This document shows, piece by piece, positions 2,970-64,000 of a stretch of 64,000 bases of DNA. The notes under the pieces are model-generated. The model saw only the letters and a program-made list of their open reading frames with translations. It searched no databases and was not told where the DNA came from. The position numbers were made by a program, and so were the translations under genes. Numbering within the stretch: the first letter of the stretch is position 1; the number at the start of each line of letters is the position of its first letter. The stretch is from Escherichia phage EscoHU1. The stretch lies in the sequence record NC_133119.1. One strand, written 5' to 3'.

Positions 2970-2998
2970 TTGCAGGATGCTCAAAATCTTGATATAAT
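2970..2998 (+). promoter_or_regulatory. sigma70-type early promoter (TTGCAG-17-TATAAT)
   Basis: -35 at 2970-2975, 17-bp spacer, -10 at 2993-2998, AT-rich downstream. Confidence 0.6.
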
Positions 2999-6284: not shown

Positions 6285-6501
6285 AAAGTGGGAGACAAGG
6301 AAGTTTCCCGTAAAAGAACGTAAAACTTCTGTTTACGATACTGCGGAGAAACTATGTAGGGTTGTACCACCTCGTCTCGCTGGTATCCCTAATGTCTCCA
6401 TATGGTTACTTAAACAACGGAAGACTCGTGTGTCTCTTCGCATTGGCTTTGAGTTAGATAAAGTCTATGCTGAGCTTGCTTCTTTGCTCAAAGAATCGTA
6501 A
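6268..6501 (+). CDS. hypothetical small basic protein
   Basis: internal ATG of ORF-track 6217..6501; overlaps stop of upstream gene by 17 nt; K/R rich. Confidence 0.4.
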   Translation: MTVKNKKWETRKFPVKERKTSVYDTAEKLCRVVPPRLAGIPNVSIWLLKQRKTRVSLRIGFELDKVYAELASLLKES

Positions 6502-6569: not shown

Positions 6570-7274
6570 ATGGCTGGTTCTCGTAGAAAGAAACTTATTC
6601 ATGAAATCCCTGATGAAACCTTTAAAAAGGTTATTGAACATCTGGAGAATGGTGGTACTAAGAAAGCAGCATGTGAAATGCTCGGTGTTTCTTCTAACCC
6701 AACTATGGAACGAATGATCGAAGAATGGAGAGATCGTCAGGTTCAGGTTGCGGAAATGAAAAAGAAGAAGCGCGGAACACTGATTGAAGGTGTTGAGCTT
6801 GCAAACGTAATTGAACAGTATCTTTCTGGTGATTCTTTTGAAGAAATCGCCGATCGTAACTATCGTTCTGTAGCGATGATTAAATCTGTTCTGGAACGTT
6901 ATGGTGCTCTGCTTCGCTTAAACGATATTGTTGATCCATTGAATCCTCCGTTGATTCCTGATGATGCAATGGCAGAAGAATTTGAAGTTGGTGAACTTGT
7001 TTGGGTTCCTGGCTACCAGTGTATTGGTGAAATCAAGAAAGCAATGACTAATCCAGTTGGTTGTTATCGTGTTTGGTTGTTATCAGAAGGTAAACAACAG
7101 AACGTTCACTATATGCACTACGAATTAGCTTCTGTTAAACATCTGGAAAAGCTGGGAGTTGATGTTAAAGCTCTAGGCTTTAAGTGGAGTCGTGAAGAAG
7201 TTATCACATTGGTTAATGAAGCTGTTAAAGCTGCCTTGAAACTCGATAAAGAGAAAGGAAAACGCCGTGAGTAA
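6570..7274 (+). CDS. putative DNA-binding protein (N-terminal helix-turn-helix-like)
   Basis: 234 aa; N-terminal GGTKKAACEMLGVS resembles an HTH; good RBS GAGAGGAG. Confidence 0.6.
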   Translation: MAGSRRKKLIHEIPDETFKKVIEHLENGGTKKAACEMLGVSSNPTMERMIEEWRDRQVQVAEMKKKKRGTLIEGVELANVIEQYLSGDSFEEIADRNYRSVAMIKSVLERYGALLRLNDIVDPLNPPLIPDDAMAEEFEVGELVWVPGYQCIGEIKKAMTNPVGCYRVWLLSEGKQQNVHYMHYELASVKHLEKLGVDVKALGFKWSREEVITLVNEAVKAALKLDKEKGKRRE

Positions 7275-7521
7275 ACTAACTGATCTGTTAAAAGCTGGAG
7301 ACGTAAAATATCTCCAGCGAGATAGCTGGGAAAATAATGCCTATTCTACCACTATTATCAAAGTAGATGTTGATAATAATGACATCATAGAATTTACTTG
7401 GTGGTGGTCTAAAGATGGGCGTACTAAACTCACGCTAGACGATGCATCGTGGAAAACCACTGAGCTAACTCTAGACGAAGCTCTGGCCGACGATTGGGAG
7501 ATCGTTGAACTAGATGTGTAG
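7267..7521 (+). CDS. hypothetical protein
   Basis: 84 aa; start overlaps upstream stop (coupled). Confidence 0.5.
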   Translation: MSKLTDLLKAGDVKYLQRDSWENNAYSTTIIKVDVDNNDIIEFTWWWSKDGRTKLTLDDASWKTTELTLDEALADDWEIVELDV

Positions 7522-7541
7522 CAGTTACTGAAAAATTTCAG

Positions 7542-7570
7542 TTGCTTAATCCTGTAATTCTTGATATAAT
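7542..7570 (+). promoter_or_regulatory. sigma70-type early promoter (TTGCTT-17-TATAAT)
   Basis: -35 7542-7547, -10 7565-7570. Confidence 0.65.
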
Positions 7571-7628
7571 ATTCTCATAGTTTGAAAGAACTATTCTGTT
7601 TAATTCTTAATTAAGGAAATCGAAAAAT

Positions 7629-8039
7629 ATGACTACTCCAACTCAGTGGACTGATGAACTGTTCGAAAAAATGTCTTCCGACTACGTTGCTCGTATGGAG
7701 CAATTCCCAGAAGATGAGCGTCCGGGCGTTAGCATGGAAATTGTTAGCGAAATTGCTCAGGAAAATGGTGTAACTCCGAACGGTTTCCGTATGAAGCTGA
7801 CCAAAGCAGGTCTGTATATCAAGAAAGCTGCTGGCTCTACTTCTAAATCAAGCGCATCTACTGGAGAAAAAGCTTCTGGTGGTTCTCGTACTTCCAAAGC
7901 TCAGGCTCACTCCGATCTTCGCTCTGCATTCTCTGATGCTGGCTTAGCACCGGACTTCCTGGACGACACGATCATCGACAAGCTGACCGGTAAAGCAGCT
8001 GCTCATCTGGCAGAAGCTATCAGAGCTATTACTAAGTAA
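7629..8039 (+). CDS. hypothetical protein, probably abundant early protein
   Basis: 136 aa; codon usage biased toward CTG/CGT/GGT/GCT; directly downstream of a strong promoter. Confidence 0.6.
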   Translation: MTTPTQWTDELFEKMSSDYVARMEQFPEDERPGVSMEIVSEIAQENGVTPNGFRMKLTKAGLYIKKAAGSTSKSSASTGEKASGGSRTSKAQAHSDLRSAFSDAGLAPDFLDDTIIDKLTGKAAAHLAEAIRAITK

Positions 8040-8075
8040 TTCTTAGATAAATCCACCAACACAAGGAATACAGTT

Positions 8076-8372
8076 ATGAATAAAGCTGAAATTATTGCTC
8101 AATGCGAAAAATTTGGTGAGTTTTATCTTCATTACGAAAAACTTCGTCAGAAAGGAACCACGTACCTTCAGGGTACTATGGAATTTGATCCAGCTCAGGA
8201 TAAATACCTGGCTGAGCGTATTAAACGTGAGCGCATCCGTAAGCCGAAAGAAGATGAAATCCTCGTTTTCTCTCGTACTAATGATAGCTTCCGTTTCATT
8301 CCTGTTGCGAAAGTTCGCCGTGTGACGAGCCTCCAGTCAGAGTTAGATCGTGCTTCTCCAGTAGGCCGATAA
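8076..8372 (+). CDS. hypothetical protein
   Basis: 98 aa; followed by a terminator. Confidence 0.55.
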   Translation: MNKAEIIAQCEKFGEFYLHYEKLRQKGTTYLQGTMEFDPAQDKYLAERIKRERIRKPKEDEILVFSRTNDSFRFIPVAKVRRVTSLQSELDRASPVGR

Positions 8373-8382
8373 GAAACCAATT

Positions 8383-8407
8383 AGCCCCTATATGGGGCTT
8401 TTTGTGT
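8383..8407 (+). terminator. rho-independent terminator
   Basis: hairpin AGCCCC-TATAT-GGGGCT followed by TTTTTGTG. Confidence 0.65.
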
Positions 8408-8422
8408 ATTTGGGATATGTAA

Positions 8423-8731
8423 ATGAGCGATCAAGTAAATCAAAACTATGAAGGACACGTTGACGACCAGTCCATCATGCTTTGGGAGAAGGAGGGGGAA
8501 CAAGTAAGACTAACCGTATCTGAATTTCGTGGGAATCTATACATGGGAATTCGTTACTGGCTCCAAGATATTACTGGAGAGTGGTTTCCAACGAAATCCG
8601 GCTTCTCTTTTCCTTATACCCTAGAAACTACATCACAGCTATTCTACGCTTTTACGCAAATCCTCAGCGAATCTGAGGTCTTGCATGAAGTACAGAAACG
8701 AGCTGAAGAACTCAAAGCCAAGAATGCCTAG
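8423..8731 (+). CDS. hypothetical protein
   Basis: 102 aa ORF. Confidence 0.55.
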   Translation: MSDQVNQNYEGHVDDQSIMLWEKEGEQVRLTVSEFRGNLYMGIRYWLQDITGEWFPTKSGFSFPYTLETTSQLFYAFTQILSESEVLHEVQKRAEELKAKNA

Positions 8732-8758
8732 TTCTTGGCTTTTTCTTTATAAATGTAC

Positions 8759-8787
8759 TTGCTTTCGACTCAGTTTTCATATATAAT
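8759..8787 (+). promoter_or_regulatory. sigma70-type early promoter (TTGCTT-17-TATAAT)
   Basis: -35 8759-8764, -10 8782-8787, downstream TATATAAATTGATGAGAGGA leader. Confidence 0.65.
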
Positions 8788-8816
8788 ATTTATATAAATT
8801 GATGAGAGGATCAATT

Positions 8817-9017
8817 ATGGCAATGACAATAACACTTCCAAAGATTCAAGCAAAACTTAATTTGCTCTCCATAGCAAGAATCAATTACCAGGATAGTATC
8901 GGCACTCCAAACCAGAAAGCGTACAAAGATGCGTGGTTGAAAGAAGCTGCTGATTTAGCTGGTATGGCTGCGCAGTATAGTAAAGAACTCAAAATGGAAA
9001 TCGCAGATGATGAATAA
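8817..9017 (+). CDS. hypothetical small protein
   Basis: ATG 8817 with GAGGAT RBS 7 nt upstream; trimmed from ORF-track 8799..9017. Confidence 0.5.
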   Translation: MAMTITLPKIQAKLNLLSIARINYQDSIGTPNQKAYKDAWLKEAADLAGMAAQYSKELKMEIADDE

Positions 9018-9981
9018 TGTAAAAGACTTTATTAAACGTTGTCAAGAAGCGTACTACCAGGGAATGAGTCTTATTTCCGATGAAGAATATGATCGTCTGA
9101 TTAAAAGATTCCCACTAGAGGAAGAAATCGGACCGAAAGGTGATATCCCTCATTTGTATCGTATGTATTCTTTGCAGAAAGTCTATTACGATCGTGGTGA
9201 TAAAGCTCCATTCAACCCACTTGGTCAGGTTGAAACTGATAAGTTAGATGGTTGTGCGATTTCTCTATTATATATTAATGGTGAGTTTGTTCAAGCGTTA
9301 ACTCGTGGTAACGGTATTCTAGGGAATGATGTAACGCATAATGTTAAAATGCTGAACATCCCCAAAACTATTTCCCAAAAAGTACCAACTCAAATCACTG
9401 GTGAAGTTCTCATTACTAAAGAAGTAGAGAACAAACGTAACTATGCTTCTGGTGCTATTAACCTGAAAGATAGTGATGATTTCATGCAACGTATTGGTGA
9501 AGGTGGTTTAATCTTCGTTGCATATGGTATCCAGTGTTCAGCGGAAACAGTCGGTATTACAGAAGCCTATTTAAAAGATATGCTTTGGCTAGAGAATGAG
9601 AACTTCTTGACAGTTATTAATGTTCGTTCCTTCTTTAAATGGATTCCGACAGATGGTAAAGTTGTTCGCATTAACGACAACAATAAATTCTTCCGTGAAG
9701 GTTGGACTAATAAATTTCCTCGTGGTGCATTTGCTATTAAAGAGGATGAAGAAGGCGAAATTACCACACTTGTTAAAGTTGAATGGCAAGTAGGGGCTTC
9801 TGGTAAAGTAACTCCAGTTGGTTATTTCGAACCGGTGATTATTGATGATGCCACAATCGTTAAAGCAACTCTTAATAACGTTGATTATATTAACGCTCTC
9901 GATTTAGAGATCGGTTGCCAGATTCGAGTGATTCGTGCTGGTGGTGTAATCCCTTGTATAGTAGAGCGAGTATACGACTAA
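9007..9981 (+). CDS. NAD-dependent DNA ligase, N-terminal part (adenylation/OB region)
   Basis: 324 aa; adenylation motif KLDG (TDKLDGCAIS); ends before Zn-finger/HhH/BRCT part encoded by next ORF. Confidence 0.85.
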   Translation: MMNNVKDFIKRCQEAYYQGMSLISDEEYDRLIKRFPLEEEIGPKGDIPHLYRMYSLQKVYYDRGDKAPFNPLGQVETDKLDGCAISLLYINGEFVQALTRGNGILGNDVTHNVKMLNIPKTISQKVPTQITGEVLITKEVENKRNYASGAINLKDSDDFMQRIGEGGLIFVAYGIQCSAETVGITEAYLKDMLWLENENFLTVINVRSFFKWIPTDGKVVRINDNNKFFREGWTNKFPRGAFAIKEDEEGEITTLVKVEWQVGASGKVTPVGYFEPVIIDDATIVKATLNNVDYINALDLEIGCQIRVIRAGGVIPCIVERVYD

Positions 9982-10031
9982 TTCGTAACCCTTTGCTACC
10001 CGTTTACCATGTCGGAATTATAAAGTGGTTA

Positions 10032-10060
10032 TTGACATTTTCGCCGCTTAGGTATATACT
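10032..10060 (+). promoter_or_regulatory. sigma70-type promoter (TTGACA-17-TATACT) inside ligase spacer
   Basis: -35 10032-10037, -10 10055-10060. Confidence 0.5.
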
Positions 10061-10124
10061 ATTATCATTCAGTTGAGGGATAGAAAGTTATGGCGAGGGT
10101 AAGCAAAGTTAGTTAAAATTGTAG

Positions 10125-10153
10125 TTGCTAAATGCTTAAATACTTGCTATAAT
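10125..10153 (+). promoter_or_regulatory. sigma70-type early promoter (TTGCTA-17-TATAAT)
   Basis: -35 10125-10130, -10 10148-10153, downstream TATATAAATTGATAAGGAAG leader. Confidence 0.65.
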
Positions 10154-10183
10154 ATTTATATAAATTGATAAGGAAGAAATTTG

Positions 10184-10963
10184 ATGAAAATCGAAATTCC
10201 AACACAATGTCCCTCTTGTGGTTCTAAGCTAGATCTTGTCAACGGGCAATTATTCTGTAGGAATAAGTCCAACTGTCCAGCGCAATCAAGTAAGTTAATC
10301 GAGAACTTCTGCACAAAAATGAAGTTAAAGGGCTTTGGCCCGAAAACTATTGAGAAGCTGGAACTGACTAAGATCTCAGAACTGTTTTACCTGACCGAAG
10401 AAGATTTGGTCGGAGCTGTGGGTAGCAAGGTTGCCGCTAAGTTGATTAGCGAGTTAAATACTAAGGTTCGCGGAGACATTGACTTTGGTTCGGTTCTCGG
10501 TTCTTTAGGAATTCCTCTTATTGGAGAGGTTGCAGCAAAGAAACTGTCCCAAAATTGCACTAGCTTCCACGATGTGAAGGCTGACGGCAAGGCTGGAGAA
10601 AATTACAAAACCTGGCTAAATTCCCCACAAGGCAAGGATGTTATTGAATTACCATGGAAATTCTCAACTGGTATTCGAGGTACTAAAGCTGATATCATCA
10701 TTACGGATGATTTAGTTGCCCAGCCAAATGGAATCACGATCTGTATTACCGGATCTTTGCAAGATTTTGCAAATCGAACGGATGCAACAAACTATTTAGA
10801 AAGTCTAGGATATACGGTTAAGAAATCCGTTACCAAAGACGTCAAATACCTAATCTGTGAGGATGAATCAAAACGTTCTTCCTCATCTTATAAGAAAGCC
10901 GAAACGAATGGGATAGAAATCCTGTCGATTAAAGAACTATTGGAGAAAAATAATAATGTCTAA
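10184..10963 (+). CDS. NAD-dependent DNA ligase, C-terminal part (Zn finger, HhH, BRCT-like)
   Basis: CPSCGSKLDL...CRNKSNCPAQ zinc-finger motif; ATG 10184 with AAGGAAG RBS. Confidence 0.8.
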   Translation: MKIEIPTQCPSCGSKLDLVNGQLFCRNKSNCPAQSSKLIENFCTKMKLKGFGPKTIEKLELTKISELFYLTEEDLVGAVGSKVAAKLISELNTKVRGDIDFGSVLGSLGIPLIGEVAAKKLSQNCTSFHDVKADGKAGENYKTWLNSPQGKDVIELPWKFSTGIRGTKADIIITDDLVAQPNGITICITGSLQDFANRTDATNYLESLGYTVKKSVTKDVKYLICEDESKRSSSSYKKAETNGIEILSIKELLEKNNNV

Positions 10964-11723
10964 ACTGAACTGGAACGTAGAAGGTGTAACCGAGTCTCTG
11001 AAAGCAAAAGCCACTGCTCTGGGTGTTGCTGTAATCTCTCAAGAACAAGTAGCTGCTATCGCTGCTGAACTGGCTACCGAGACTGGTAAAGACGTTACCG
11101 CTCGCTCTGTTGGCTCTAAGCTGCGTAAAGAAGGTTTCGAAGTACAGAAAGCTAACGAAGTACAGAAATCCCCGTGGACTCCTGAGCAGGAAGCTGAACT
11201 AGTTGATTTCCTGAACGCTCATGCTGGTCAGTATACTTACGCTGAAATCGCTGCTGCTGTAGCTGGTGGTCAGTTCGGTGCTAAGCAGGTACAGGGTAAG
11301 ATCCTGAGTCTGGAAATGACCACTTCTGTTAAGCCAACTGAAAAAGCTGCTGCTGTTCGTTCCTTCACTCCGGACGAAGAAACTGACTTCGTTAATCAGG
11401 TTGTTGCTGGTGCTACTATTGAAGCTATCGCTGCTCACTTCGGTCGCAATATTAAGCAGATCCGTGGTAAAGCTCTGAGCCTGCTTCGTGAAGGTCGTAT
11501 CGCTGCTATGCCGGTACAGGAAACTTCAAGTGCTAAAACTCGTGAAGATCTGTTAGAAGGTCTGGATCTGGCTAACATGACTGTTGCTGAGATCGCTGAG
11601 AAAACTGGTAAGTCTGAGCGCGGTGTTAAGTCTATGCTGTCTCGTCGTGGTCTGGTTGCTAAGGACTATGATGGTGCCGCTAAGCGTGCTAAACTGGATG
11701 CAAAAGCTGCGGCTGCTGAATAA
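10956..11723 (+). CDS. hypothetical abundant protein with internal repeats (possible DNA-binding protein)
   Basis: 255 aa; about five copies of a K/R-x-x-G-K-x-L-S-L-like motif; strongly biased codon usage. Confidence 0.65.
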   Translation: MSKLNWNVEGVTESLKAKATALGVAVISQEQVAAIAAELATETGKDVTARSVGSKLRKEGFEVQKANEVQKSPWTPEQEAELVDFLNAHAGQYTYAEIAAAVAGGQFGAKQVQGKILSLEMTTSVKPTEKAAAVRSFTPDEETDFVNQVVAGATIEAIAAHFGRNIKQIRGKALSLLREGRIAAMPVQETSSAKTREDLLEGLDLANMTVAEIAEKTGKSERGVKSMLSRRGLVAKDYDGAAKRAKLDAKAAAAE

Positions 11724-14227: not shown

Positions 14228-16795
14228 TTGAAAATTGCAGTAGTTGATAAAGCTCTAAATAACACTCGTTATGATAAACACTTCCAGCTCTATGGTGAGG
14301 AAGTCGATGTATTCCACATGTGTAACGAGAAGTTATCTGGCCGTTTGCTGAAAAAGCATATTACAATCGGAACTCCAGATAACCCGTTCGATCCGAACGA
14401 TTACGATTTTGTTGTGCTAGTTGGTGCTGAACCTTTCCTGTATTTCGCAGGTAAGAAAGGTATTGGTGATTATACTGGTAAACGTGTAGAGCATGGCGGC
14501 TATGCCAACTGGATTGCAAGTATTAGTCCAGCTCAGTTACACTTTAAACCTGAAATGAAACCAGTTTTCGATGCAACTGTAGAAAGTATTCACGATATTA
14601 TTAATGGTCGTGAGAAGATTGCAAAAGCTGGTGATTATCGTCCCATTACTGATCCAGATGAAGCGGAAGAATACATTAAGATGGTGTATAACATGGTTAT
14701 CGGACCTATCGCATTCGACTCCGAAACCTCAGCTTTATACGCTCGTGATGGTTATCTGCTTGGTGTTTCTATGTCTCACCAAGAGTATCAGGGTGTTTAT
14801 ATTGACTCTGACAGCATCACCGAAGTAGCTGTACATTATCTCCAGAAAATTCTGGATAGCAAGAATCATCAGATCGTTTTCCATAACTTGAAGTTCGATA
14901 TGCACTTTTACTCCTATCATCTAGGACTCTCCTTTGAGAAAGCACATAAAGAGCGTAGACTTCATGATACCATGTTACAACACTATGTTCTCGATGAACG
15001 TCGTGGTACTCACGGCTTGAAATCTCTGGCTATGAAGTATACTGACATGGGCGATTACGACTTTGAACTGGATAAGTTCAAGGATGATTATTGCAAGGCA
15101 CATAAGATCAAAAAAGAGGATTTCAGCTATGATCTGATTCCATTTGATATTATGTGGCCATATGCTGCAAAGGATACCGATGCTACTCTGCGTCTGCATA
15201 ACTTCTTCTTATCGAAAATTGAGAAGAATGAAAAACTTTGCAGTCTATACTATGATGTTCTAATGCCTGGTTGTGTATTCCTGCAACGTGTTGAAGATCG
15301 TGGTGTACCGATTTCTGTTGATCGCTTGAAAGAAGCTCAGTATCAATTAACTCATAACCTGAACAAGGCTCGTGAGAAGCTGTATACTTATCCAGAAGTC
15401 GTTCAGCTAGAGAAAGATCAGAATGAAGCGTTTAACCCGAACTCTGTTAAGCAACTTCGTGTTCTTCTGTTTGATTATGTTGGTTTGACTCCAACAGGTA
15501 AACTGACGGATACAGGTGCAGATTCTACAAACGCAGAAGCTCTGAACGAACTAGCTACTCAGCACCCGATTGCTAAAACTCTGCTAGAGATTCGTAAGCT
15601 GACTAAGCTGATCTCTACTTATGTTGAGAAGATTCTTCTGAGCATCGATGCAGATGGTTGCATTCGTACTGGCTTCCACGAACACATGACTACTTCTGGT
15701 CGTCTGAGTTCTTCTGGTAAGCTGAACCTGCAACAGTTACCACGTGATGAATCTATTATCAAGGGTTGTGTAGTAGCTCCTCCTGGATATCGTGTAATCG
15801 CATGGGACTTAACAACTGCGGAAGTTTATTACGCTGCTGTACTGTCTGGTGACAGAAACATGCAACAAGTATTTATCAACATGAAGAATGAGCCGGATAA
15901 ATACCCTGACTTCCACTCAAACATCGCACACATGGTATTTAAACTGACCTGTGAACCACGTGATGTTAAAAAGCTGTTCCCAGCTCTGCGTCAGGCTGCT
16001 AAGGCAATTACCTTCGGTATTCTGTATGGTTCTGGCCCAGCGAAAGTAGCTCATTCTGTTAACGAAGCTCTTCTGGAACAGGCTGCTAAGACAGGCGAAC
16101 CGTTTGTTGAATGTACCGTTGCAGATGCTAAGGACTATATCGAAACTTACTTCGGTCAGTTCCCTCAGCTTAAGCGTTGGATTGATAAGTGCCACGATCA
16201 GATCAAGAACTTTGGATTCATCTATAGTCACTTTGGTCGTAAGCGTCGTCTGCACAACATCCATTCCGAAGATCGTGGTGTTCAGGGTGAAGAAATCCGT
16301 TCTGGATTTAACGCAATCATTCAGTCTGCATCTTCTGATAGCCTGTTGTTAGGTGCTATTGATGCTGATGAAGAAATCCTGTCACTGGGTCTAGGAAAAG
16401 AGATGAAGATCGTCATGTTGGTTCACGACTCCGTGGTTGCCATTGTACGTGAAGATCTGATCGATCAGTATAACGAGATTCTGATTCGTAGCATCCAGAA
16501 GGATCGTGGTATTAGTATCCCTGGCTGCCCAATCGGTATTGATTCTGATTCTGAGAAAGGTGGTTCTCGTGACTACTCTTGTGGTAAGATGAAGAAACAG
16601 CACCCATCAATCGCTTGTATTGATGATGATGAGTATACTCGTTATGTTAAGGGTGTATTACTCGATGCAGATTTCGAGTATAAGAAGTTAGCTGCAATGG
16701 ATAAAGAGCATCCAGACCACAGCAAGTACAAGGATGATAAGTTTATTGCTGTATGTAAAGATCTGGATAATGTGAAAAGGATTTTAGGTGCTTGA
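14228..16795 (+). CDS. family A DNA polymerase with 3'-5' exonuclease domain
   Basis: 855 aa; exo motif FDSETSALY; Pol A motif B RQAAKAITFGILYGSG; TTG start after AAGGAGA RBS. Confidence 0.9.
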   Translation: MKIAVVDKALNNTRYDKHFQLYGEEVDVFHMCNEKLSGRLLKKHITIGTPDNPFDPNDYDFVVLVGAEPFLYFAGKKGIGDYTGKRVEHGGYANWIASISPAQLHFKPEMKPVFDATVESIHDIINGREKIAKAGDYRPITDPDEAEEYIKMVYNMVIGPIAFDSETSALYARDGYLLGVSMSHQEYQGVYIDSDSITEVAVHYLQKILDSKNHQIVFHNLKFDMHFYSYHLGLSFEKAHKERRLHDTMLQHYVLDERRGTHGLKSLAMKYTDMGDYDFELDKFKDDYCKAHKIKKEDFSYDLIPFDIMWPYAAKDTDATLRLHNFFLSKIEKNEKLCSLYYDVLMPGCVFLQRVEDRGVPISVDRLKEAQYQLTHNLNKAREKLYTYPEVVQLEKDQNEAFNPNSVKQLRVLLFDYVGLTPTGKLTDTGADSTNAEALNELATQHPIAKTLLEIRKLTKLISTYVEKILLSIDADGCIRTGFHEHMTTSGRLSSSGKLNLQQLPRDESIIKGCVVAPPGYRVIAWDLTTAEVYYAAVLSGDRNMQQVFINMKNEPDKYPDFHSNIAHMVFKLTCEPRDVKKLFPALRQAAKAITFGILYGSGPAKVAHSVNEALLEQAAKTGEPFVECTVADAKDYIETYFGQFPQLKRWIDKCHDQIKNFGFIYSHFGRKRRLHNIHSEDRGVQGEEIRSGFNAIIQSASSDSLLLGAIDADEEILSLGLGKEMKIVMLVHDSVVAIVREDLIDQYNEILIRSIQKDRGISIPGCPIGIDSDSEKGGSRDYSCGKMKKQHPSIACIDDDEYTRYVKGVLLDADFEYKKLAAMDKEHPDHSKYKDDKFIAVCKDLDNVKRILGA

Positions 16796-55776: not shown

Positions 55777-57441
55777 TTATGCAAAGAATTTACCGTTTTT
55801 GAAATCAATCAAAGTACGTTGCCCGTTTGCATAGGTAATTAAATGCGTTTGCGTCCAGCTTGACGCGCCCACGTTGTAACCCATATCAAGCGACCCCGCC
55901 ACGCCAGCGGTATAAACGCCGCCGTAAATGCTAGCCGTATGAGTATGACCAGTGTTAAGGCGTCCAAGTTTCTTAAACTGCTTAGGATTGCCCCGACTGC
56001 CGTTAATGCCATTGTGACCATGTACGCCGCACTCAATGCCAGCGATTTTAAATGACTGGTCAGTAGTCAGGAAAATAGCGTTAAATTCGCAACCTGCAAC
56101 GTTTCTAAGCGCGTAATCTAGCACGTTAAAGGTATCATCCTTTTCAGCAATAGCGGCGTAAATCGCAGCGTTTAGACGGTGATACAATTCCGCGTTTGCG
56201 GGATCGTCTTTAATGTTAGCGTTACGATCATCAAGCCAGCGTGAAAGAGCTAAATCATGGTTAGATTCCACAATGATTGTTTGAGAGAAATCACGCTCCA
56301 TTGATTCTAATACGCGTCCAGTATCGATAAGATCATCAATAACTTTATCACGTCCTGCGGCGTACTGTTTAGCAAGGAATACACCACTAGCGCGGTTGTG
56401 ATGGTTGCGCGATGTAAAATCATGCACATCATGAATAAACTGATATTTAGGCTTGAGAATATCAAGCAAGCTGTTTTCACTAGCCCATGATGCAACGGCG
56501 CAATCATCATCTAATTTTTCGGCGTGAATATCGCCATATTGCAAGCCTAGAACATGATCGGACGTTTTATAACATCCGGTAGGAGTAGCGCAAACATTCA
56601 AATCATAGAACATTCCGCTTTCATCCATTGTTTCAAGCTGGCGAACGAAAAATTCTCCGTCGTCGTCGAACTCCACCAGCAAAGCGCCGAAATTATGCAG
56701 AGCCTCAGCTTTTTGACCTGCTTTCTGCTGAATGTAGTTTTTAAGCGTAGCCGTTCCGGTTGAATACATACGGCGCACTACTTCACCTTTTAACGCTGGC
56801 ACACTTTCAGCGGTGATTTTAGCGTGACCTATTGCCAGCCCTTCAATATTTAAAGCCGTGGCGGTTTCTGCGAATCCTGAAAGCGGATAATCTGCCGTTG
56901 GTAAAACGTTAATTTCAGCCATGAAAGCAAAGCGGCGGTTATTCAGGAAAACATTTTTATCGCAGATATATTTATCAAATGCGGGATCGTATTTGATTCC
57001 TTCTGCACCTTCCCCGTTCTGGAATCCATTTTTATTATAAATGAATTTACTAATCAGCAATTCAGCACCGATATATTCAGCAAATTTTTCCAGACTTGCT
57101 AAAAAGTTTTTATGCGGGAAAGTATTATTTTGAATCGACGTTAGAATAAAACGGCGACCGGATTTAACTTCCCATTGTTCAACGGTACTAGAAACAATTC
57201 CCGCCGCTTCGGGGCGATCATCATTTTTAATCGCCTTTTCAGCTTTTGCCGCTTTCGGTTTCGCTGGCTTGTTTGCTTCCAGCCAATCACAAATCGCGGT
57301 TGAATGTTTCGGCGTATCATAAACAGCTTTTGAAATATCGTCGCAAACTTCCAATTTAGTAGCGCGTAAACGCTTACCGTAGAAATTAAAATCAGCGGCC
57401 ATTTTCAAAATTTGAGCTTGTTTTTCTGCGGAAATATTCAT
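55777..57441 (-). CDS. A1: A1-like pre-early protein (metallophosphoesterase-type)
   Basis: 554 aa; calcineurin-like phosphoesterase motifs (GDIHAE, GNHD, GHTHTAS); size matches T5 A1. Confidence 0.8.
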   Translation of the reverse strand: MNISAEKQAQILKMAADFNFYGKRLRATKLEVCDDISKAVYDTPKHSTAICDWLEANKPAKPKAAKAEKAIKNDDRPEAAGIVSSTVEQWEVKSGRRFILTSIQNNTFPHKNFLASLEKFAEYIGAELLISKFIYNKNGFQNGEGAEGIKYDPAFDKYICDKNVFLNNRRFAFMAEINVLPTADYPLSGFAETATALNIEGLAIGHAKITAESVPALKGEVVRRMYSTGTATLKNYIQQKAGQKAEALHNFGALLVEFDDDGEFFVRQLETMDESGMFYDLNVCATPTGCYKTSDHVLGLQYGDIHAEKLDDDCAVASWASENSLLDILKPKYQFIHDVHDFTSRNHHNRASGVFLAKQYAAGRDKVIDDLIDTGRVLESMERDFSQTIIVESNHDLALSRWLDDRNANIKDDPANAELYHRLNAAIYAAIAEKDDTFNVLDYALRNVAGCEFNAIFLTTDQSFKIAGIECGVHGHNGINGSRGNPKQFKKLGRLNTGHTHTASIYGGVYTAGVAGSLDMGYNVGASSWTQTHLITYANGQRTLIDFKNGKFFA

Positions 57442-57835: not shown

Positions 57836-58252
57836 TTATTCACCTGCGGCCTGTTTCACTTCCTCCGCTACGCCTAACAATTGCGCCACGGCTTCCAGCG
57901 TTTCCAGTTTTGCACTTTCCAGACTTGCCAGATCATCAGCGTCTTTAATAACGCCAGCATCAATGGCATGTTTAGCCATAACGCGCACATAGTGAGCTTT
58001 ACGGACACTAGACCCGCCGCCAACTTTACGCGGTTTATCGCTTTTCTGGTACGCTTTTGCGCTTGTCAGTTTAGAACGTACAGACACCGGACTAGCAGCG
58101 CCAACGGCGGCGGCAATTTCTTTTAAGCCGTCACTATTCGCAAACTCAATCCCGCTTTTAGCGACCATTTCAGAATACATAGAAACAGCCTTTTCGGTGT
58201 TTTCTTCGTTCCAAGAAAATTTTGCGGTTTTTTCGGTTTTAACGTTAGACAT
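57836..58252 (-). CDS. putative A2-like pre-early DNA-binding protein
   Basis: 138 aa; assigned by position upstream of A1-like gene and size only. Confidence 0.45.
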   Translation of the reverse strand: MSNVKTEKTAKFSWNEENTEKAVSMYSEMVAKSGIEFANSDGLKEIAAAVGAASPVSVRSKLTSAKAYQKSDKPRKVGGGSSVRKAHYVRVMAKHAIDAGVIKDADDLASLESAKLETLEAVAQLLGVAEEVKQAAGE

Positions 58253-59377: not shown

Positions 59378-59404
59378 TTAGAATCGCTTACAGAGCGTTT
59401 TAGA
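59378..59404 (+). repeat. 27-bp direct repeat, copy 1 (TTAGAATCGCTTACAGAGCGTTTTAGA)
   Basis: 24/27 identical to 63154-63180. Confidence 0.7.
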
Positions 59405-59620
59405 CCCTGTTAATAACTTATACAAAAAGCAAAAATGAAATTTAATGAATTATCCACTTGATTTTTCAAAAAAGTATTTTCTGCTGTTATTTTTCATTGA
59501 CAAATAAGTTTAGGCGTGTATCAGACCCTTAGCAGACTAACAATCGCTAGGATGATAATCACGCTGGTGGATTGTAACAGCCGAAACAGTTAGCAGACTA
59601 TTAATACTCTAAAAACCTAT

Positions 59621-59650: not shown

Positions 59651-59721
59651 ATACTTATAAATTAAAGAGAAATAATAACTATAAGAAACTATCGGCTAAG
59701 TGAGAACCACTATCATTTAGG

Positions 59722-59742
59722 TTATTCACAAAGTTATCCACA
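59722..59742 (+). promoter_or_regulatory. pair of DnaA boxes (TTATTCACA, TTATCCACA)
   Basis: 9-mers at 59722-59730 and 59734-59742 match TTATNCACA. Confidence 0.6.
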
Positions 59743-59782
59743 GCACAAAATAACTTGACGCAATAGGCGACGTTTTGGCGAC

Positions 59783-59829
59783 TTATCCACAGACTTATGT
59801 ACAGGTTATCCTACTGTATAAATATACAG
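59783..59829 (+). repeat. 47-bp inverted repeat, left copy (DnaA box + SOS-box-like palindrome)
   Basis: 41/47 identical to reverse complement of 63213-63259; begins with TTATCCACA 59783-59791. Confidence 0.7.
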
Positions 59830-59830
59830 G
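59811..59830. promoter_or_regulatory. LexA (SOS) box-like palindrome CTGTATAAATATACAG
   Basis: CTGT-N8-ACAG with AT-rich centre; matches E. coli LexA consensus TACTGTATATATATACAGTA at 17/20. Confidence 0.55.
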
Positions 59831-60017
59831 GTAGAATGGTAGCAGTAACAACCGCAATCAAATTTAAGCGGCCTAAAACGCGTTCTAAGCGGTTTTTCAG
59901 CATTACCCCTTATTATAATAAAGCCTTGTGTACGCTTACAGAGAGCTAGAAATAGAAAACGCGCGGTTAGCACAAAAATAGGCAGTAGGCAAGGAATAAA
60001 AAACCTTTTCTTTTTTC

Positions 60018-60047
60018 TTGCCCCTAGCGAACAAATATCTATATCAT
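60018..60047 (+). promoter_or_regulatory. candidate promoter for rightward operon (TTGCCC-18-TATCAT)
   Basis: -35 60018-60023, -10 60042-60047, ~30 nt before RBS GAGGGAG. Confidence 0.35.
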
Positions 60048-60078: not shown

Positions 60079-61080
60079 ATGTCTACTGTAAGAATTGCAG
60101 TACCAACAAACGCAACTATTATTAAAGGTAGTTTGCGCAACCTGCTAGATGGTAGTAGTGCGGCAAGTATTCAGCACACCGCCGCAATGGTTGAAAAAAT
60201 TCACGAGGATATTTTAGATAATAATGATACTCATTATTCAGTCGATGATTTCACGCTATTACTAGACCAGACAAGGGCGCTAGTAATTTTCAACCGTGAT
60301 TATCACATTTTCCGTAATAGTCGTGGAACTGATATTGATTTTATCATTGTTGGTTATAGTGAGTCTCATAATGGTTACATTGCGCGATTATATAACGTGC
60401 AAGAAAAAGAGCAGGTAACAGCAACAAAAGTAAATAGTATCAGGCTTGATAGTGTCGGGTCGTTATTAAATAGTATCTGGCGCGAATTATCGTCAAGCTA
60501 TAAAGGCGCGGATAGTGACGCAATCGAAACAACTGGCGTATTGTGTTTTGAACGCGCTAGCGGTAACATGTTGATTCCTGACGATTATTTAGGGTACGGG
60601 AATGAATCAAACGTTGCAAACGCTGGATTTACATTAAAACCGCTTGACAACGTAGCAAAACAGGCTGTAGAATCTCAAACTTCAAGCGCAAATGCGCAAA
60701 CTACTGAAAATAAAGGAAATATTATGTCTAAAGTATCTTCTATCGTTGCTGCTAATAAATCCGCCGTTGTAAACGCTGCTAAATTGGAAGCGGGTAAAAT
60801 TGCACTGACTCAAATCACAAAAGTAGCGGCGAAAAAAGCGCCGTTTATGATTAAAGGGTATATTGATACGCCGATTGGTCGCGTAGTGATCGCTAACCTG
60901 CTGAGTGTAGCGGTTGACCAGTACGCCCCGACTAATGCGAAAGCGAAAGCGGTAGCAGGCGCGGCAATGGAAGCGGCAATGTTGGAAATGGTACAGAGTT
61001 TCAATATTGCGGAAATGATCGATGAAATGGTAAAAGGTATTGACATTTCTACTTTTACCAATAACACCGAAAGCGAGTAA
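60079..61080 (+). CDS. hypothetical protein
   Basis: 333 aa; RBS GAGGGAG; Ala/Lys-rich C-terminal half; no enzymatic motif. Confidence 0.55.
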   Translation: MSTVRIAVPTNATIIKGSLRNLLDGSSAASIQHTAAMVEKIHEDILDNNDTHYSVDDFTLLLDQTRALVIFNRDYHIFRNSRGTDIDFIIVGYSESHNGYIARLYNVQEKEQVTATKVNSIRLDSVGSLLNSIWRELSSSYKGADSDAIETTGVLCFERASGNMLIPDDYLGYGNESNVANAGFTLKPLDNVAKQAVESQTSSANAQTTENKGNIMSKVSSIVAANKSAVVNAAKLEAGKIALTQITKVAAKKAPFMIKGYIDTPIGRVVIANLLSVAVDQYAPTNAKAKAVAGAAMEAAMLEMVQSFNIAEMIDEMVKGIDISTFTNNTESE

Positions 61081-61088
61081 TAATAACT

Positions 61089-61120
61089 AGCGGGGATTAT
61101 TTCCCCGCTTTACTATTTCC
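61089..61120 (+). terminator. rho-independent terminator / attenuator
   Basis: AGCGGGGA-TTATT-TCCCCGCT followed by TTACTATTT. Confidence 0.55.
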
Positions 61121-61145
61121 CTGCTAATTAATAGGAGACTAATTA

Positions 61146-61640
61146 ATGTCAGAAGAAAAATATGGCTTTTCGCTAGAAAGTGTGAATGAAGCTAAACACG
61201 ATATGATCGTTTTAGTTGATTGTCATACTGGTTATTGCGGGGAGGGCTGGACGGAAGAACATTTTGTTCCCGCTGGCTGTGATCTGGATGCTTTCGCAAA
61301 CGAACACGCATATGATAATGCTTCTCGTTTCGGTAGCGATGGGGAAGAAGATGAAGAAACAGGGGAATGGATTGAAAATGATAATGTATATGCGAGTCTT
61401 TATCATTATCAATTGAGTAAGTCCGGTACTTATGTAAATGGCGGCGATCCTATTAATATCGTTATGAAACTAATTATTAAACACGGTGGCGCGGAAATAA
61501 TTGGTAACAAGGCGTTATTATACGCAAACCGATTAAAACAGCTTGTTTATATTCCTGATAATTCCCGTTGGGATGAATATGCCGTTTTACAGAAAGAATT
61601 AAAACGCTGTTTCGGCGTGGAAGCATTAGAAATAGTCTAA
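61146..61640 (+). CDS. hypothetical acidic protein
   Basis: 164 aa; acidic patch GSDGEEDEETGEWIEND; RBS TAGGAGA. Confidence 0.55.
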   Translation: MSEEKYGFSLESVNEAKHDMIVLVDCHTGYCGEGWTEEHFVPAGCDLDAFANEHAYDNASRFGSDGEEDEETGEWIENDNVYASLYHYQLSKSGTYVNGGDPINIVMKLIIKHGGAEIIGNKALLYANRLKQLVYIPDNSRWDEYAVLQKELKRCFGVEALEIV

Positions 61641-61749
61641 TGTAAAGTTTTGTAAAGGTCGCTTTAATCGGCGGCCTTTTTTGTTATAATGCCTTTACAC
61701 CGAAACGGTGGATTGAAAATTTTCCCAAAATTTTTTGGAGGCGTTAAAA

Positions 61750-61980
61750 ATGGTTGCTTTCTCTTCTTCTGACTCTCTTTTCACTGGTAAAGGTTGGGTA
61801 TCTAATCGCTGGATCATTGATCAAATGGTTTCGGAATTTGGGATAGGTAAAACTTATGTTACTATTCAGGCGCTTTATGATAATGATCAGATTGACCAGC
61901 AAACCGCCGGATTTTTGCTGGACACGTTGAAATCAGAACATTGCACCAAAAAGCAAGCGGCAAAAATCGTTTTAATGTAA
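61750..61980 (+). CDS. hypothetical small protein
   Basis: ATG 61750 after GGAGG RBS; trimmed from ORF-track 61735..61980 (TTG). Confidence 0.45.
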   Translation: MVAFSSSDSLFTGKGWVSNRWIIDQMVSEFGIGKTYVTIQALYDNDQIDQQTAGFLLDTLKSEHCTKKQAAKIVLM

Positions 61981-62033
61981 TTAATAACGGGGCGTTACTT
62001 TCGCCCCTCATTCCCTAACTAGGAGTTAAGCAA

Positions 62034-62246
62034 ATGTTAAAGAATGTTTCCCTTGCCCGTTCTAAAGGTTTTAAGCTGGTGGATGTTAACACGTTCGAGC
62101 GTCCAGATTGTAAAATCGAATATGTAGCACGCAACAAAAACGCTTTCCGTGTTACAGAAAAGAAATTTGACAAGCGCGGAAATTTGGTAGCCGAAACGGT
62201 TAAACACTTTGCCACCTTTTACGCTGCGTTTCGTGGGGTGTTATGA
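62034..62246 (+). CDS. hypothetical small protein
   Basis: 70 aa; RBS TAGGAG. Confidence 0.5.
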   Translation: MLKNVSLARSKGFKLVDVNTFERPDCKIEYVARNKNAFRVTEKKFDKRGNLVAETVKHFATFYAAFRGVL

Positions 62247-62344
62247 GATCCTTATATATTGCTCTAGCGTTTGCTACCGTTGGCGTTGTATGTTCCGTCG
62301 CCGCATTTGTTTTAAAAATGTACCTGATATTTTCCCAGCTTTAG
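62243..62344 (+). CDS. small hydrophobic peptide
   Basis: 33 aa MRSLYIALAFATVGVVCSVAAFVLKMYLIFSQL; ATGA overlap with upstream stop; not in ORF track. Confidence 0.3.
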   Translation: MRSLYIALAFATVGVVCSVAAFVLKMYLIFSQL

Positions 62345-62355
62345 GAGCTTGACAA

Positions 62356-62703
62356 ATGGTTATTTACGAGGGCAATCGTTTTGTTGCTAATTGCCGTCCG
62401 GCATTATTAGCAAACTATTTAAATCAGCTTTCACCAGTTTATAAAGGTGTGGTTAATATCTATGAAGGCAAAGCACATTATAAAATTTCTGCCGTTGTCG
62501 CTCGCGAGCTTGCCTTTCAGTTTCTTACTTTTAACTCATGCGATATTCAGGTTATGGGTGAGTCATTAGTAGCAGAAAATGAAAATGAATTTATTGACAT
62601 TTTCCGCAAAGTATGTACCGAGCGCCTGATTATGAAAGGCGCATATATTCAATCAACCGCTGATAGTATTGAAACAGCGTTTCGAAAAATTGCATATGAA
62701 TAG
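62356..62703 (+). CDS. hypothetical protein
   Basis: 115 aa; RBS TAGGAGC. Confidence 0.5.
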   Translation: MVIYEGNRFVANCRPALLANYLNQLSPVYKGVVNIYEGKAHYKISAVVARELAFQFLTFNSCDIQVMGESLVAENENEFIDIFRKVCTERLIMKGAYIQSTADSIETAFRKIAYE

Positions 62704-62742
62704 CTGGTGGCGTAAAACGCAAAGTCACAAATCTAATAATAC

Positions 62743-62772
62743 CGCTGGGAAACATTCCCAGCGTTTACGATT
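62743..62772 (+). terminator. terminator-like hairpin
   Basis: CGCTGGGA-AACA-TCCCAGCG followed by TTTACGATTT. Confidence 0.45.
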
Positions 62773-62826
62773 TGGTAATGGCTTCACAATGATATTGATA
62801 ATCATTCTCATTCTAGGAGCAATGGC

Positions 62827-63066
62827 ATGGCTGTAAGAATTTTACGATATGTAGAACGTAAAGAAACCGATATTATGCAGCATCATTTAACTGATGCGCA
62901 ATATGCGCAATTTTTAGAAATGCAGAAAAGCGGAGCTAGTACGGCGGCGCTAGGGGCGTGGATCAATTCAGTTTCAATATGTACGCATTTTGATTCATAC
63001 GGATATACGCCAGCCGAAACCGTCCAGATCTTTGACGACTACGAGAAGGAATACATAGCAGACTAA
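62827..63066 (+). CDS. hypothetical small protein
   Basis: 79 aa; RBS TAGGAGCA. Confidence 0.5.
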   Translation: MAVRILRYVERKETDIMQHHLTDAQYAQFLEMQKSGASTAALGAWINSVSICTHFDSYGYTPAETVQIFDDYEKEYIAD

Positions 63067-63153: not shown

Positions 63154-63180
63154 TTAGAATGCGTTACAGAGCGTTTTAGA
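63154..63180 (+). repeat. 27-bp direct repeat, copy 2 (TTAGAATGCGTTACAGAGCGTTTTAGA)
   Basis: 24/27 identical to 59378-59404. Confidence 0.7.
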
Positions 63181-63210: not shown

Positions 63211-63230
63211 TACTGTATAAATATACAGTA
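63211..63230. promoter_or_regulatory. LexA (SOS) box-like palindrome TACTGTATAAATATACAGTA
   Basis: 19/20 match to E. coli LexA consensus; core 16-mer identical to 59814-59829. Confidence 0.6.
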
Positions 63231-63259
63231 GAATAACCTGTTGATAAGTCTGTTGATAA
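63213..63259 (-). repeat. 47-bp inverted repeat, right copy (SOS-box-like palindrome + degenerate DnaA boxes)
   Basis: reverse complement is 41/47 identical to 59783-59829; contains TGTTGATAA twice. Confidence 0.7.
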
Positions 63260-63352
63260 CGCCTCAAAATCGCTAGGATTTTGTCAGGTCAAATCGTGCT
63301 GTTAATAAACCTGTGAATAAATTAAATAACAGTGTTTCTCACTTCACTTTGT

Positions 63353-63497
63353 AAATGCGAGTCATTCTCGTTATCATTCGCGTTTCCCTTCCTAAATGCA
63401 AATCATTCTCATTCGTATTCCGGTAGTCAAATGATAACCATTCTCATTCGCATTCAACTTCTCAAATGCGAATCAATCTCATTATCATTCGCATTTT
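63353..63497 (+). repeat. tandem array of four imperfect palindromic units (consensus AAATGCGAATCATTCTCATT-N-CATTCGCATT)
   Basis: units start at 63353, 63394, 63429, 63464 (35-41 bp period); each unit is internally palindromic. Confidence 0.75.
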
Positions 63498-63502: not shown

Positions 63503-63535
63503 GCAGGGCATTTTCATTTTGCCCTGCGCTTTTGT
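63503..63535 (+). terminator. hairpin between repeat arrays
   Basis: GCAGGGC-ATTTTCATTTT-GCCCTGC followed by GCTTTTG. Confidence 0.35.
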
Positions 63536-63757
63536 GCAAATCCGACATTTGCCCCCACGGATTACGTGCCAGCGTGCATGTGCGAATCCGACAATTTTTG
63601 GTAGTGTGCAAATCCGATGGCAAATATTTTTTATATGTGCGAATCCGACAATGAATTTTCCTAAAAACTCCAGCAATCACGAGTGCGGCTCGATTCCTGT
63701 GGAATTAGCTAGAATATGCGCAGAACCGACAAGCGTTAAGGTGTGCGAATCCGACAA
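63533..63757 (+). repeat. six direct copies of a 16-bp motif TGTGCGAATCCGACAA
   Basis: copies at 63533, 63579, 63605, 63636, 63717, 63742, all same orientation, irregular 25-81 bp spacing. Confidence 0.75.
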
Positions 63758-64000
63758 GATTTTTGTGACTTCGATGAGAGGGTGTGTAATTGTGTGAGTT
63801 TGTGGGAGAGTTGATGCAGCGAGAGAAAATTAGAGGAGAAACTGGAGGGTGCAGCTGTGGTGGCGTGAAACGCCTGGTTTGCTGCGTTTTTGGGGATAAT
63901 GTGGGATGTTTTGGGATAATTGGGCATGGAGCGAGATAAAGTGAAATTTTATTAGCAAAATGGGGCAAAATCGCTTGACAAGTGAAAATTCCTGTGGCTC

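Follow-up and report, generated by a model that had tools for sequence, protein, structure and literature searches.

In bacteriophage T5, the injection of DNA pauses after 8% of the genome and restarts minutes later, which has been an open question for more than 50 years. The stop requires no new protein synthesis (Davison, bioRxiv 10.1101/866236), and in recent accounts its mechanism is still "poorly understood", with nothing but repeats, palindromes and DnaA boxes listed at the stop signal (2023, PMC10644984; 2026, PMC13250531). A comparison of the IRC-spacer-IRD and IRD'-spacer-IRC' repeats in 25 phages retrieved eight DnaA boxes, set in pairs, as well as a constant 52-bp spacer (bioRxiv 10.1101/866236). 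In the same preprint, the DnaA-box arrays were proposed as part of the injection stop signal, the whole repeat region was found to be unusually conserved, the T5 replication origins were placed elsewhere than in the repeat module, and the functions of the palindromes were called impossible to guess (Davison, bioRxiv 10.1101/866236, the last in section 4.2).

Herein we characterized one of these palindromes in a 64-kb window, i.e., the whole stretch of 64,000 nucleotides that was analysed, from Escherichia phage EscoHU1. The window carries two copies of the element, termed box 1 and box 2. The 20-mer of box 2 is identical to positions 9330-9349 of the T5 record AY587007 (Wang et al.), which are annotated as "palindrome D", and the T5 "inverted repeat D" (AY587007 6112-6152) ends at the last base of the homologue of the box 1 core. 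Palindrome D and the repeats D/D' of T5 are the same element as the window boxes, with equal arm length, the 52-bp spacer and DnaA pairs 3 bp apart, whereas the T5 descriptions differ in that neither the AY587007 annotation (Wang et al. 2005) nor Davison gives the palindrome a function or a ligand. Palindrome D, the IRD/IRD' repeat and the flanking DnaA boxes are known already; the identity of palindrome D as a LexA operator appears to be new. The words LexA and SOS are absent from the Davison preprint (bioRxiv 10.1101/866236), and a LexA reading of palindrome D was found neither in PMC10644984 (on BF23), PMC13250531 (PNAS) and bioRxiv 10.64898/2026.04.02.716235 (on the pre-early genes of T5) nor by full-text searches, with a prior mention in Heusterspreute 1987, Wang 2005 or Davison 2015 being possible. 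The original prediction, made from the sequence of the window, was aware of no LexA boxes described for T5-type phages, and none were found in the literature reached.

Two LexA-type boxes in the pre-early repeat module

The last 5 kb of the window are 90-95% identical to hundreds of T5-like phages (Demerecviridae), the closest matches being the Salmonella phages HMD-P2, STK8t and Stitch. The window thus belongs to a T5-like phage of the family Demerecviridae, and these matches, together with the A1/A2 gene context, bear out the predicted placement of the boxes in the pre-early region of a lytic phage of the T5 type. The box region corresponds to about 5-10 kb of the T5-type terminal repeat, which is the first-step-transfer (pre-early) DNA. 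The features of the locus are as follows.

55777-57441, minus strand: pre-early gene A1
57836-58252, minus strand: pre-early gene A2
59698..59829, plus strand: arm IRC-spacer-IRD, with DnaA-box pairs at 59722-59730 and 59734-59742, and at 59783-59791 and 59795-59803
59806-59811: degenerate third DnaA box, TTATCC, running into LexA box 1
59812..59831: LexA-type SOS box 1, TACTGTATAAATATACAGGG, 22.2 bits
59870..59894, minus strand: inverted copy of the GCGTT-type element (repeat I3), on the operon side of box 1
60018..60047, plus strand: sigma-70 promoter-like site for the rightward pre-early operon; it is clear of box 1, ~190 bp away
60079-63066, plus strand: rightward pre-early gene block
60079-61080: DUF7566 gene, in the rightward pre-early operon
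63154..63180, plus strand: GCGTT-type element of about three tandem 10-bp units, GCGTTAGAAT GCGTTACAGA GCGTTTTAGA, 30 bp to the operon side of box 2
63211..63230: LexA-type SOS box 2, nearer the injection stop signal, TACTGTATAAATATACAGTA, 25.6 bits
63213..63344, minus strand: arm IRD'-spacer-IRC', with DnaA-type boxes at 63239-63247, 63251-63259, 63300-63308 and 63312-63320
63336..63496, plus strand: DRE-type direct repeats (from the repeat search and the T5 iss annotation), directly right of the IRC' arm

As in the T5 repeat module, the part of the terminal repeat to the right of A2 contains two arms of ~131 bp, inverted relative to each other and with several kb between them. In the repeat search they were returned as a single inverted repeat (I1), whose arms at 59698-59829 and 63213-63344 are 132 nt long and 74% complementary. 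Each arm holds two DnaA or DnaA-like pairs, the boxes of a pair being 3 bp apart, and a fixed spacer separates the IRD part from the IRC part. Of the five consensus DnaA boxes in the 64-kb window, four are located inside the two arms. Read from the operon outward, the order in an arm is the GCGTT-type element, ~30 bp, the LexA box, GGATAACC, a DnaA pair, the 52-bp spacer and the second DnaA pair, with 10 bp separating the box core from the first DnaA box in both window arms. The tandem-unit element at 63154..63180 is conserved as far as Vibrio phages. Weaker inverted similarity extends ~100 bp past the boxes towards the operon, and each box is therefore located inside a longer degenerate repeat, not at its tip.

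The rightward pre-early gene block is flanked by one arm on either side; the second arm is at the left margin of the injection stop signal, the DRE-type repeats being the start of the injection-stop repeat region proper. A long intergenic region separates the A2-side genes from the divergent rightward pre-early operon, and box 1 is found there, 248 bp ahead of the first rightward gene. Box 2 comes after the last rightward gene and a terminator-like hairpin, on the left border of the non-coding repeat region that carries the injection stop signal annotation in T5.

The 16-mer CTGTATAAATATACAG that was originally reported twice is indeed present as exact copies at 59814-59829 and 63213-63228, both on the plus strand. 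At up to two mismatches it is expected 0.09 times in dinucleotide-preserving shuffles, none of which reached the observed number. Both copies of the prediction thus exist; they are not independent, however, since each 16-mer is the operon-facing end of one inverted-repeat arm and the pair therefore represents the facing ends of one long inverted repeat. The further claim that the second copy departs from the LexA consensus at one central base was confirmed from 63211-63230, where 19 of the 20 positions, including the flanking TA, match the consensus TACTGTATATATATACAGTA and the sole difference is one central base. Sites of the form CTGT-N8-ACAG number four in the 64-kb window versus 0.81 expected, and the remaining two (12402 and 44729) have no A+T-rich centre.

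The boxes were scored with a LexA weight matrix trained on a hand-compiled list of 20 E. coli operators, which themselves range from 13.2 to 24.2 bits; box 2 exceeds all of them, at 25.6 bits, and box 1 scores 22.2. At a threshold of at least 19 bits, the window contains these two boxes, compared to 0.02 expected per 64 kb under a composition-matched random model. A third site of 16.1 bits (15378-15397) is located inside an 855-aa ORF and probably arose by chance.

As a test independent of this operator list, the box 2 20-mer was searched exactly in one genome per bacterial species. The matches listed come from more than 120 bacterial genomes, where chance would give ~1-5, and nearly all of these genomes belong to Beta- or Gammaproteobacteria. 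The LexA of Beta- and Gammaproteobacteria recognises CTGT-N8-ACAG. An ORF of at least 100 aa starts no more than 60 bp from the 20-mer in 60 of the 80 loci examined, and the Pfam assignments of ORFs at this distance included S24 peptidases (UmuD/LexA; 12 ORFs), SOS-cassette radical-SAM proteins (11), DnaE2-type polymerases (PHP / DNA_pol3_alpha; 10), RecA (5), the LexA DNA-binding domain (2), DinI (1) and SulA (1). Since the 20-mer sits at SOS genes in bacteria, the sequence of phage box 2 is, letter for letter, that of a working SOS operator. Both boxes are LexA-type by every sequence test, i.e., the matrix score and the occurrence of the 20-mer beside bacterial SOS genes, as the prediction of near-consensus LexA boxes had it. 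On these grounds LexA very probably binds the box sequence, and its occupancy of such an operator in an uninduced host would be expected from what is established about LexA.

Conservation across the T5-like phages

To follow the boxes across the family, we compared the pre-early regions of 15 relatives that were picked for diversity. Alongside T5, Stitch, SPC35 and DT571/2, these included phages of Klebsiella (Spivey, Roth49, vB_Kpn_3), Pantoea (AAS21), Erwinia (KEY), Pectobacterium (My1), Proteus (Stubb, A1 42% identical) and Vibrio (VCPH, phi 3, 234P1 and Chester, A1 32-34% identical). Escherichia and Salmonella are among the hosts as well, and the taxa covered are Tequintavirus, Epseptimavirus, Sugarlandvirus, Myunavirus, Novosibvirus, Jesfedecavirus and Thalassavirus, as well as unclassified Pantoea, Erwinia and Vibrio phages. 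High-scoring boxes were found in the non-coding pre-early DNA of all 15 relatives, spanning at least seven genera, so that the conservation across related phages for which the original prediction had proposed a check is clear. In total, 28 boxes of at least 19 bits were counted in 196 kb of pre-early DNA from the 15 phages, versus none in 3 Mb of composition-matched random sequence.

The stop-proximal box is the perfect 20-mer, with its centre either way, in nine of the 11 enteric-type genomes (the window included), and the exceptions, AAS21 and My1, carry ATCCAG, which is the most frequent of the natural variants. In a comparison of Vibrio phage VCPH with a 381-bp query that spans box 2, a single part could still be aligned; it starts exactly with the 20-mer and stops where the first DnaA pair ends. 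Column conservation was expressed as the major-allele frequency over 22 sites from 11 phages, in which the invariance of the box arms (CTG/CAG) is partly built in because the boxes were picked with the LexA matrix.

CTGTAT and ATACAG arms of the box: 0.98
GGATAACC after the box: 0.95
First DnaA pair: 0.90
Central four bases of the box: 0.80
52-bp spacer: 0.68
Operon-side flank: 0.63

The box arms are thus the best-conserved bases of the module, and the variants seen in them (CCAG, CTGG) are common ones in natural operators. The centre is asymmetric and reads AAAT or ATTT, with every combination occurring at the two sites, or ATCC in 234P1. A centre that flips between constant arms fits a symmetric dimer reading the arms, and is at odds with a directional element, for instance a -10 hexamer.

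For 23 of 30 boxes, 9-11 bp separate the core from the nearest DnaA box, in constant relative orientation, and the composite pattern (core, 10 bp, DnaA box) was recovered from IMG/VR only on contigs of 95-123 kb, which is the range of T5-type genomes. In some Vibrio phages the boxes are located away from DnaA boxes. Box 1 has decayed in the viable phage Stitch (ACAG to ACGG, 16.9 bits), and at least that copy is therefore dispensable. Taken at the level of sequence, both the identity of the LexA boxes and their conservation are strongly supported.

Three observations concern the sampling and the repeat itself. The known hosts of Demerecviridae are all Gammaproteobacteria, with one common LexA motif. 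Gene conversion between the arms contributes to the likeness of the two copies within a genome, whatever their function. A1 homologues occur in ~1,100 phage records, and those from phages infecting Alphaproteobacteria and Bacteroidetes represent other types of phage.

Possible roles of the boxes

As candidate roles of the sites, the original prediction put forward a roadblock to entering DNA or control of the pre-early genes. In nearly all known cases, phages and plasmids included, a LexA box is a classical operator, and under this reading LexA would repress a promoter in or near the module, making some pre-early transcript SOS-dependent or SOS-boosted. The promoter-like site of the rightward operon (60018..60047), however, is separated from box 1 by some 190 bp. 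Its counterpart by position is the T5 promoter 6411-6489, described as experimentally characterised (bioRxiv 10.64898/2026.04.02.716235), which is likewise ~200 bp from the T5 box at 6211-6230. Box 2 is downstream of the operon terminator, with no gene downstream of it on either strand. A weak sigma-70-like match on the minus strand (TTATCA-16-TATATT) does overlap box 2 and would favour an operator, but it hinges on the flipping centre, which holds its -10, and its -35 is a DnaA box, so that we rejected it as a promoter. The prediction that neither box overlaps an obvious promoter accordingly stands for conserved promoters. Two further candidates were discarded, namely TAGAAT after both boxes, which has no -35 at the proper distance and is not conserved as a hexamer in T5 or the others, and the TTGAC(A/G) conserved in the 52-bp spacer, which as a -35 has no conserved -10 at 16-18 bp. 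Compared with the window, T5, AAS21, KEY and Stubb, the Klebsiella phages and My1 have the gene block between the boxes in the opposite orientation, yet both boxes are kept, and there is thus no conserved fixed relation between box and promoter. Transcription-driven DNA entry that is stopped at the boxes was rejected owing to the same inversion of the operon. In favour of the operator reading are the Vibrio phages, where sigma-54-type -24/-12 elements have a LexA-type box directly adjoining them or 10 nt upstream (VCPH 3387/3406, 234P1 10939/10969, Chester 3788/3818), whereas the sigma-54 consensus occurs nowhere within the 64-kb window. SOS operators adjoin the promoter they regulate, and while some Vibrio-phage boxes adjoin sigma-54-type sites, the boxes of the enteric phages adjoin no such promoter and are not classical promoter operators; we regard a promoter role of this kind as distinctly unlikely.

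A more serious competitor for the site is a phage-encoded or virion-delivered dimer, for example the essential A2, in which case the likeness to an SOS box would be incidental, or LexA would mask the site until displaced. A2, which with A1 releases the injection stop, is present in every phage that carries the boxes and is labelled simply "DNA binding protein" by PHROGs/Pfam and annotation; it is a DNA-binding dimer, and a dimer would suit a palindrome. The box centre is also more conserved than in host operators, and half-broken boxes, found at a third position in My1, VCPH, phi3 and Chester, keep the TGTATAWWTATACA core with one CTG/CAG lost, as would fit a protein that reads the inner core and not the CTG/CAG arms. 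Nonetheless, it is very unlikely that agreement with the LexA consensus at 19 of 20 positions, the flanking TA among them, is incidental, the exact 20-mer serves as a working SOS operator in the matches listed, from more than 120 genomes, and LexA would fill such a site anyway in an uninduced cell. The AlphaFold model of A2 (32 homologues, pLDDT 83) is all-helical and has no beta-strand wing of the LexA DNA-binding domain; its best match in the PDB was not significant (E = 0.86), the A2 sequence matched no solved structure, and the fold gives no support to A2 as a LexA mimic. Likewise, no repressor or HTH family was detected among the pre-early ORFs with Pfam and PHROGs. A phage ligand is, on balance, rather unlikely. 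That the palindrome has no function and is carried inside a strongly conserved repeat, its SOS likeness being tolerated and not selected, would agree with the unusual conservation of the whole repeat region (Davison) and with the decay of box 1 in Stitch. It sits poorly, though, with a conservation of 0.98 in the box arms versus 0.63-0.90 in other parts of the module, and with high-scoring boxes in Proteus and Vibrio phages whose A1 is 32-42% identical and whose DNA is otherwise unalignable, and we consider it very improbable. The least probable of the readings weighed here is that the palindrome is kept as DNA, either as a recombination core that inverts the gene block or as a small cruciform or hairpin in a secondary-structure stop signal. 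Some lineages carry the block in inverted orientation, and the flanking sequence switches at the box/DnaA core; the stop region is described as rich in palindromes thought to form secondary structures (PMC13250531), and the box 2 hairpin folds better than shuffled sequence (z = -4.8). The stem, however, is 6-8 bp and A+T-rich, and folds as single-stranded DNA at -3.3 kcal/mol for one palindrome and -4.9 kcal/mol for the other, which is too weak to extrude from duplex; a structural role is therefore weak and a stable cruciform is not supported. Moreover, recombination needs only likeness of the arms, neither an SOS consensus nor constancy where the surrounding DNA no longer aligns, and the invariant part is the box arms and not the symmetry, given that the centre is asymmetric and flips. 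A known RNA family was also looked for at the locus, and none was found at threshold (Rfam).

The preferred reading is that the boxes are functional LexA sites that act in a non-promoter complex with DnaA, a proposal that we hold to be evenly balanced between true and false from the sequence evidence. It is an extension of Davison's DnaA model, not a replacement. The stop proceeds without new protein synthesis, which means that its factors pre-exist, as both LexA and DnaA do. Upon entry of the first 8% of the genome into an undamaged cell, pre-existing LexA dimers would fill both boxes at once, and LexA and DnaA on adjacent arrays would build a protein-DNA complex on each arm. LexA would cap the operon-facing end of the DnaA array, its footprint overlapping the degenerate third DnaA box (TTATCC|TAC). 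The role that we consider likeliest is structural: such a complex might hold or organise the first-transferred DNA during the pause before the A1/A2-dependent second-step transfer, A1/A2 might later resolve it, and the transfer step would thereby become sensitive to the SOS state of the host.

The individual steps differ in how far we would trust them. That the LexA-DnaA complex specifically holds the DNA at the stop is doubtful, albeit a serious candidate. Unlikely is the stronger version, in which LexA and DnaA are the pre-existing host factor that arrests transfer at 8%, A1/A2 end the pause, and the pause is shortened or bypassed in an SOS-induced, LexA-depleted host. T5 grows on recA-deficient laboratory strains, and RecA-dependent LexA cleavage is therefore not required for second-step transfer. 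An obligatory SOS timer, in which A1 would break down host DNA, RecA would be activated and LexA cleaved, and transfer would restart, was rejected on this account, which leaves a modulating role only.

Two further points speak against a hold by LexA and DnaA. There is no obvious way for proteins bound in the cytoplasm to stop DNA entry, a point on which Davison's model is equally weak. In addition, some Vibrio boxes lack DnaA neighbours or are near sigma-54-type sites, and the role may vary by lineage or be transcriptional.

Significance and comparison with known systems

If palindrome D is a conserved site of predicted top affinity for a named host protein, an anonymous repeat becomes a testable host-factor hypothesis, and one phased module links two host master regulators, LexA and DnaA. 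Should arrest by LexA and DnaA prove true, the phage would read the DNA-damage state of its host during genome entry; we know of no virus that uses the SOS repressor at this step. LexA that is inert at the boxes would also be informative, since the phage would then tolerate a repressor bound at a critical cis site.

The DnaA side of the module resembles origins of replication. Arrays of the oriC type carry sites for accessory proteins (IHF, Fis), and the phage module is similar to them in its ordered, phased DnaA boxes of the same orientation, its fixed spacer and a second host-protein site at a fixed distance. It differs in that there is no evidence of replication initiation at the phage module, and we know of no origin at which LexA acts as a partner of DnaA.

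The LexA side is closest to the Gammaproteobacterial SOS box, as in E. coli recA, sulA, umuDC and dinD, with which it shares the motif TACTGT-(AT-rich 8)-ACAGTA and with respect to which the phage score and heterology are within or better than the natural range. Unlike host SOS boxes, those of the enteric phages are off promoters and come as two copies 3.4 kb apart, in the arms of an inverted repeat, 10 bp from a DnaA array, and in a strictly lytic phage. Judged by its letters, the element is thus a genuine SOS-box sequence in an unprecedented setting. LexA operators do occur in mobile elements, including coliphage 186 tum, CTXphi rstA, Bacillus phage GIL01, colicin operons and integron integrases, all of which, as far as we know, are promoter-embedded switches of lysogeny and induction or of toxin expression. 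LexA sites that are kept off promoters by a whole family of strictly lytic phages would, to our knowledge, be the first case. As in those systems, a mobile element carries host LexA sites that would couple it to the SOS state; unlike in 186 tum, CTXphi rstA and the others, the carrier here is a virulent phage, and the sites are off promoters, in the region that controls DNA entry.

Inversion of the gene block between the boxes

The block between the two LexA-type boxes, comprising the DUF7566 gene and its neighbours, was located in the window and in the pre-early stretches of four relatives (L handles, each in its own coordinates):

Window 60079-63066, DUF7566 block
L003 (Klebsiella phage) 2547-5348, corresponding block
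L006 (Klebsiella phage) 2217-5359, corresponding block
L007 (Klebsiella phage) 2285-4972, corresponding block
L010 (My1) 8019-10487, corresponding block

In the window, Stitch, T5, SPC35, AAS21, KEY and Stubb, the block runs divergently from the pre-early genes A1/A2, but My1 and the three Klebsiella phages have it co-directional with them. The sequence flanking each box on its operon side is exchanged in step with block orientation. The inter-box block has therefore been inverted during evolution, and the inversion took place by recombination between the box/DnaA cores of the two repeat arms.

The GCGTT-type element and a third box

Each LexA-type box has, ~30 bp away on its operon side, a GCGTT-type element made up of roughly three 10-bp units in tandem (GCGTTAGAAT GCGTTACAGA GCGTTTTAGA), and the window has three copies of this element in all. 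It resembles a phased array of binding sites for some protein and is still recognisable in the Vibrio phages (CTAAAACGCTCTGTAAGCGATTCTAAGCG). In My1 and the Vibrio phages, a third box lacking one CTG/CAG arm (TGTATAWWTATACATG) directly abuts such an element; at the same place, the window retains no more than a decayed remnant (CCCTGTTAATAACTTATACAA).

Window 59378-59404, GCGTT-type element
Window 59870-59894, GCGTT-type element (inverted)
Window 63154-63180, GCGTT-type element
Window 59405-59425, third-box remnant
L010 (My1) 7248, third box
L005 (Vibrio phage VCPH) 2948, third box
L012 (phi 3) 7547 and 10551, third boxes
L015 (Chester) 216 and 3788, third boxes

Another LexA-like sequence, AGCTGTATACTTATCCAGAA (15378-15397), scores 16.1 bits; it falls within an 855-aa ORF (14228-16795, + strand) and is probably there by chance.

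Sigma-54-type and Fur-box-like sequences

The Vibrio T5-like phages have frequent matches to the sigma-54-type promoter consensus (TGGCAC/T-N5-TTGC) in their non-coding pre-early DNA, with six sites in VCPH, six in 234P1 and two each in phi 3 and Chester; My1 has a single site, and there are none in the whole 64-kb window or in the enteric relatives. Three of the sites have a LexA-type box either abutting their -24 element or 10 nt upstream of it.

L005 (VCPH) 2915-5800, sigma-54-type sites
L013 (234P1) 7021-10969, sigma-54-type sites
L012 (phi 3) 7513 and 10449, sigma-54-type sites
L015 (Chester) 182 and 3818, sigma-54-type sites
L010 (My1) 7379, sigma-54-type site

The T5 receptor FhuA is Fur-regulated. 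Searching the window with GATAATGATAATCATTATC at ≤3 mismatches returned 4 matches against 0.06 expected, the best Fur-box-like match (GATATTGATAATCATTCTC) lying just upstream of the ORF at 62827-63066; at ≤6 mismatches, 18 of 53 matches fell within 60-64 kb, the stop-region direct repeats (DRE) among them.

Window 62791-62809, 60220-60238 and 63336-63496, concentrated Fur-box-like sequences

A2, the spacer hexamer and the stop-region repeats

Second-step transfer depends on A2, whose predicted structure (pLDDT 83, good confidence) is all-helical and in two parts; comparison with the PDB gave neither a structural nor a sequence match of significance. Every arm of the inverted repeat in the enteric phages keeps a TTGAC(A/G) hexamer in its 52-bp spacer, and no -10-like hexamer follows it at 16-18 bp in these arms.

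Window 57836-58252, - strand, A2
Window 59755-59760, spacer hexamer
Window 63283-63288, spacer hexamer (inverted)
Window 63533-63762, TGTGCGAATCCGACA present four times, on the right-hand side of the DnaA arm

The T5 counterpart of the TGTGCGAATCCGACA copies is the series named 'direct repeat D', close to where the 7.9% nick is annotated in T5.
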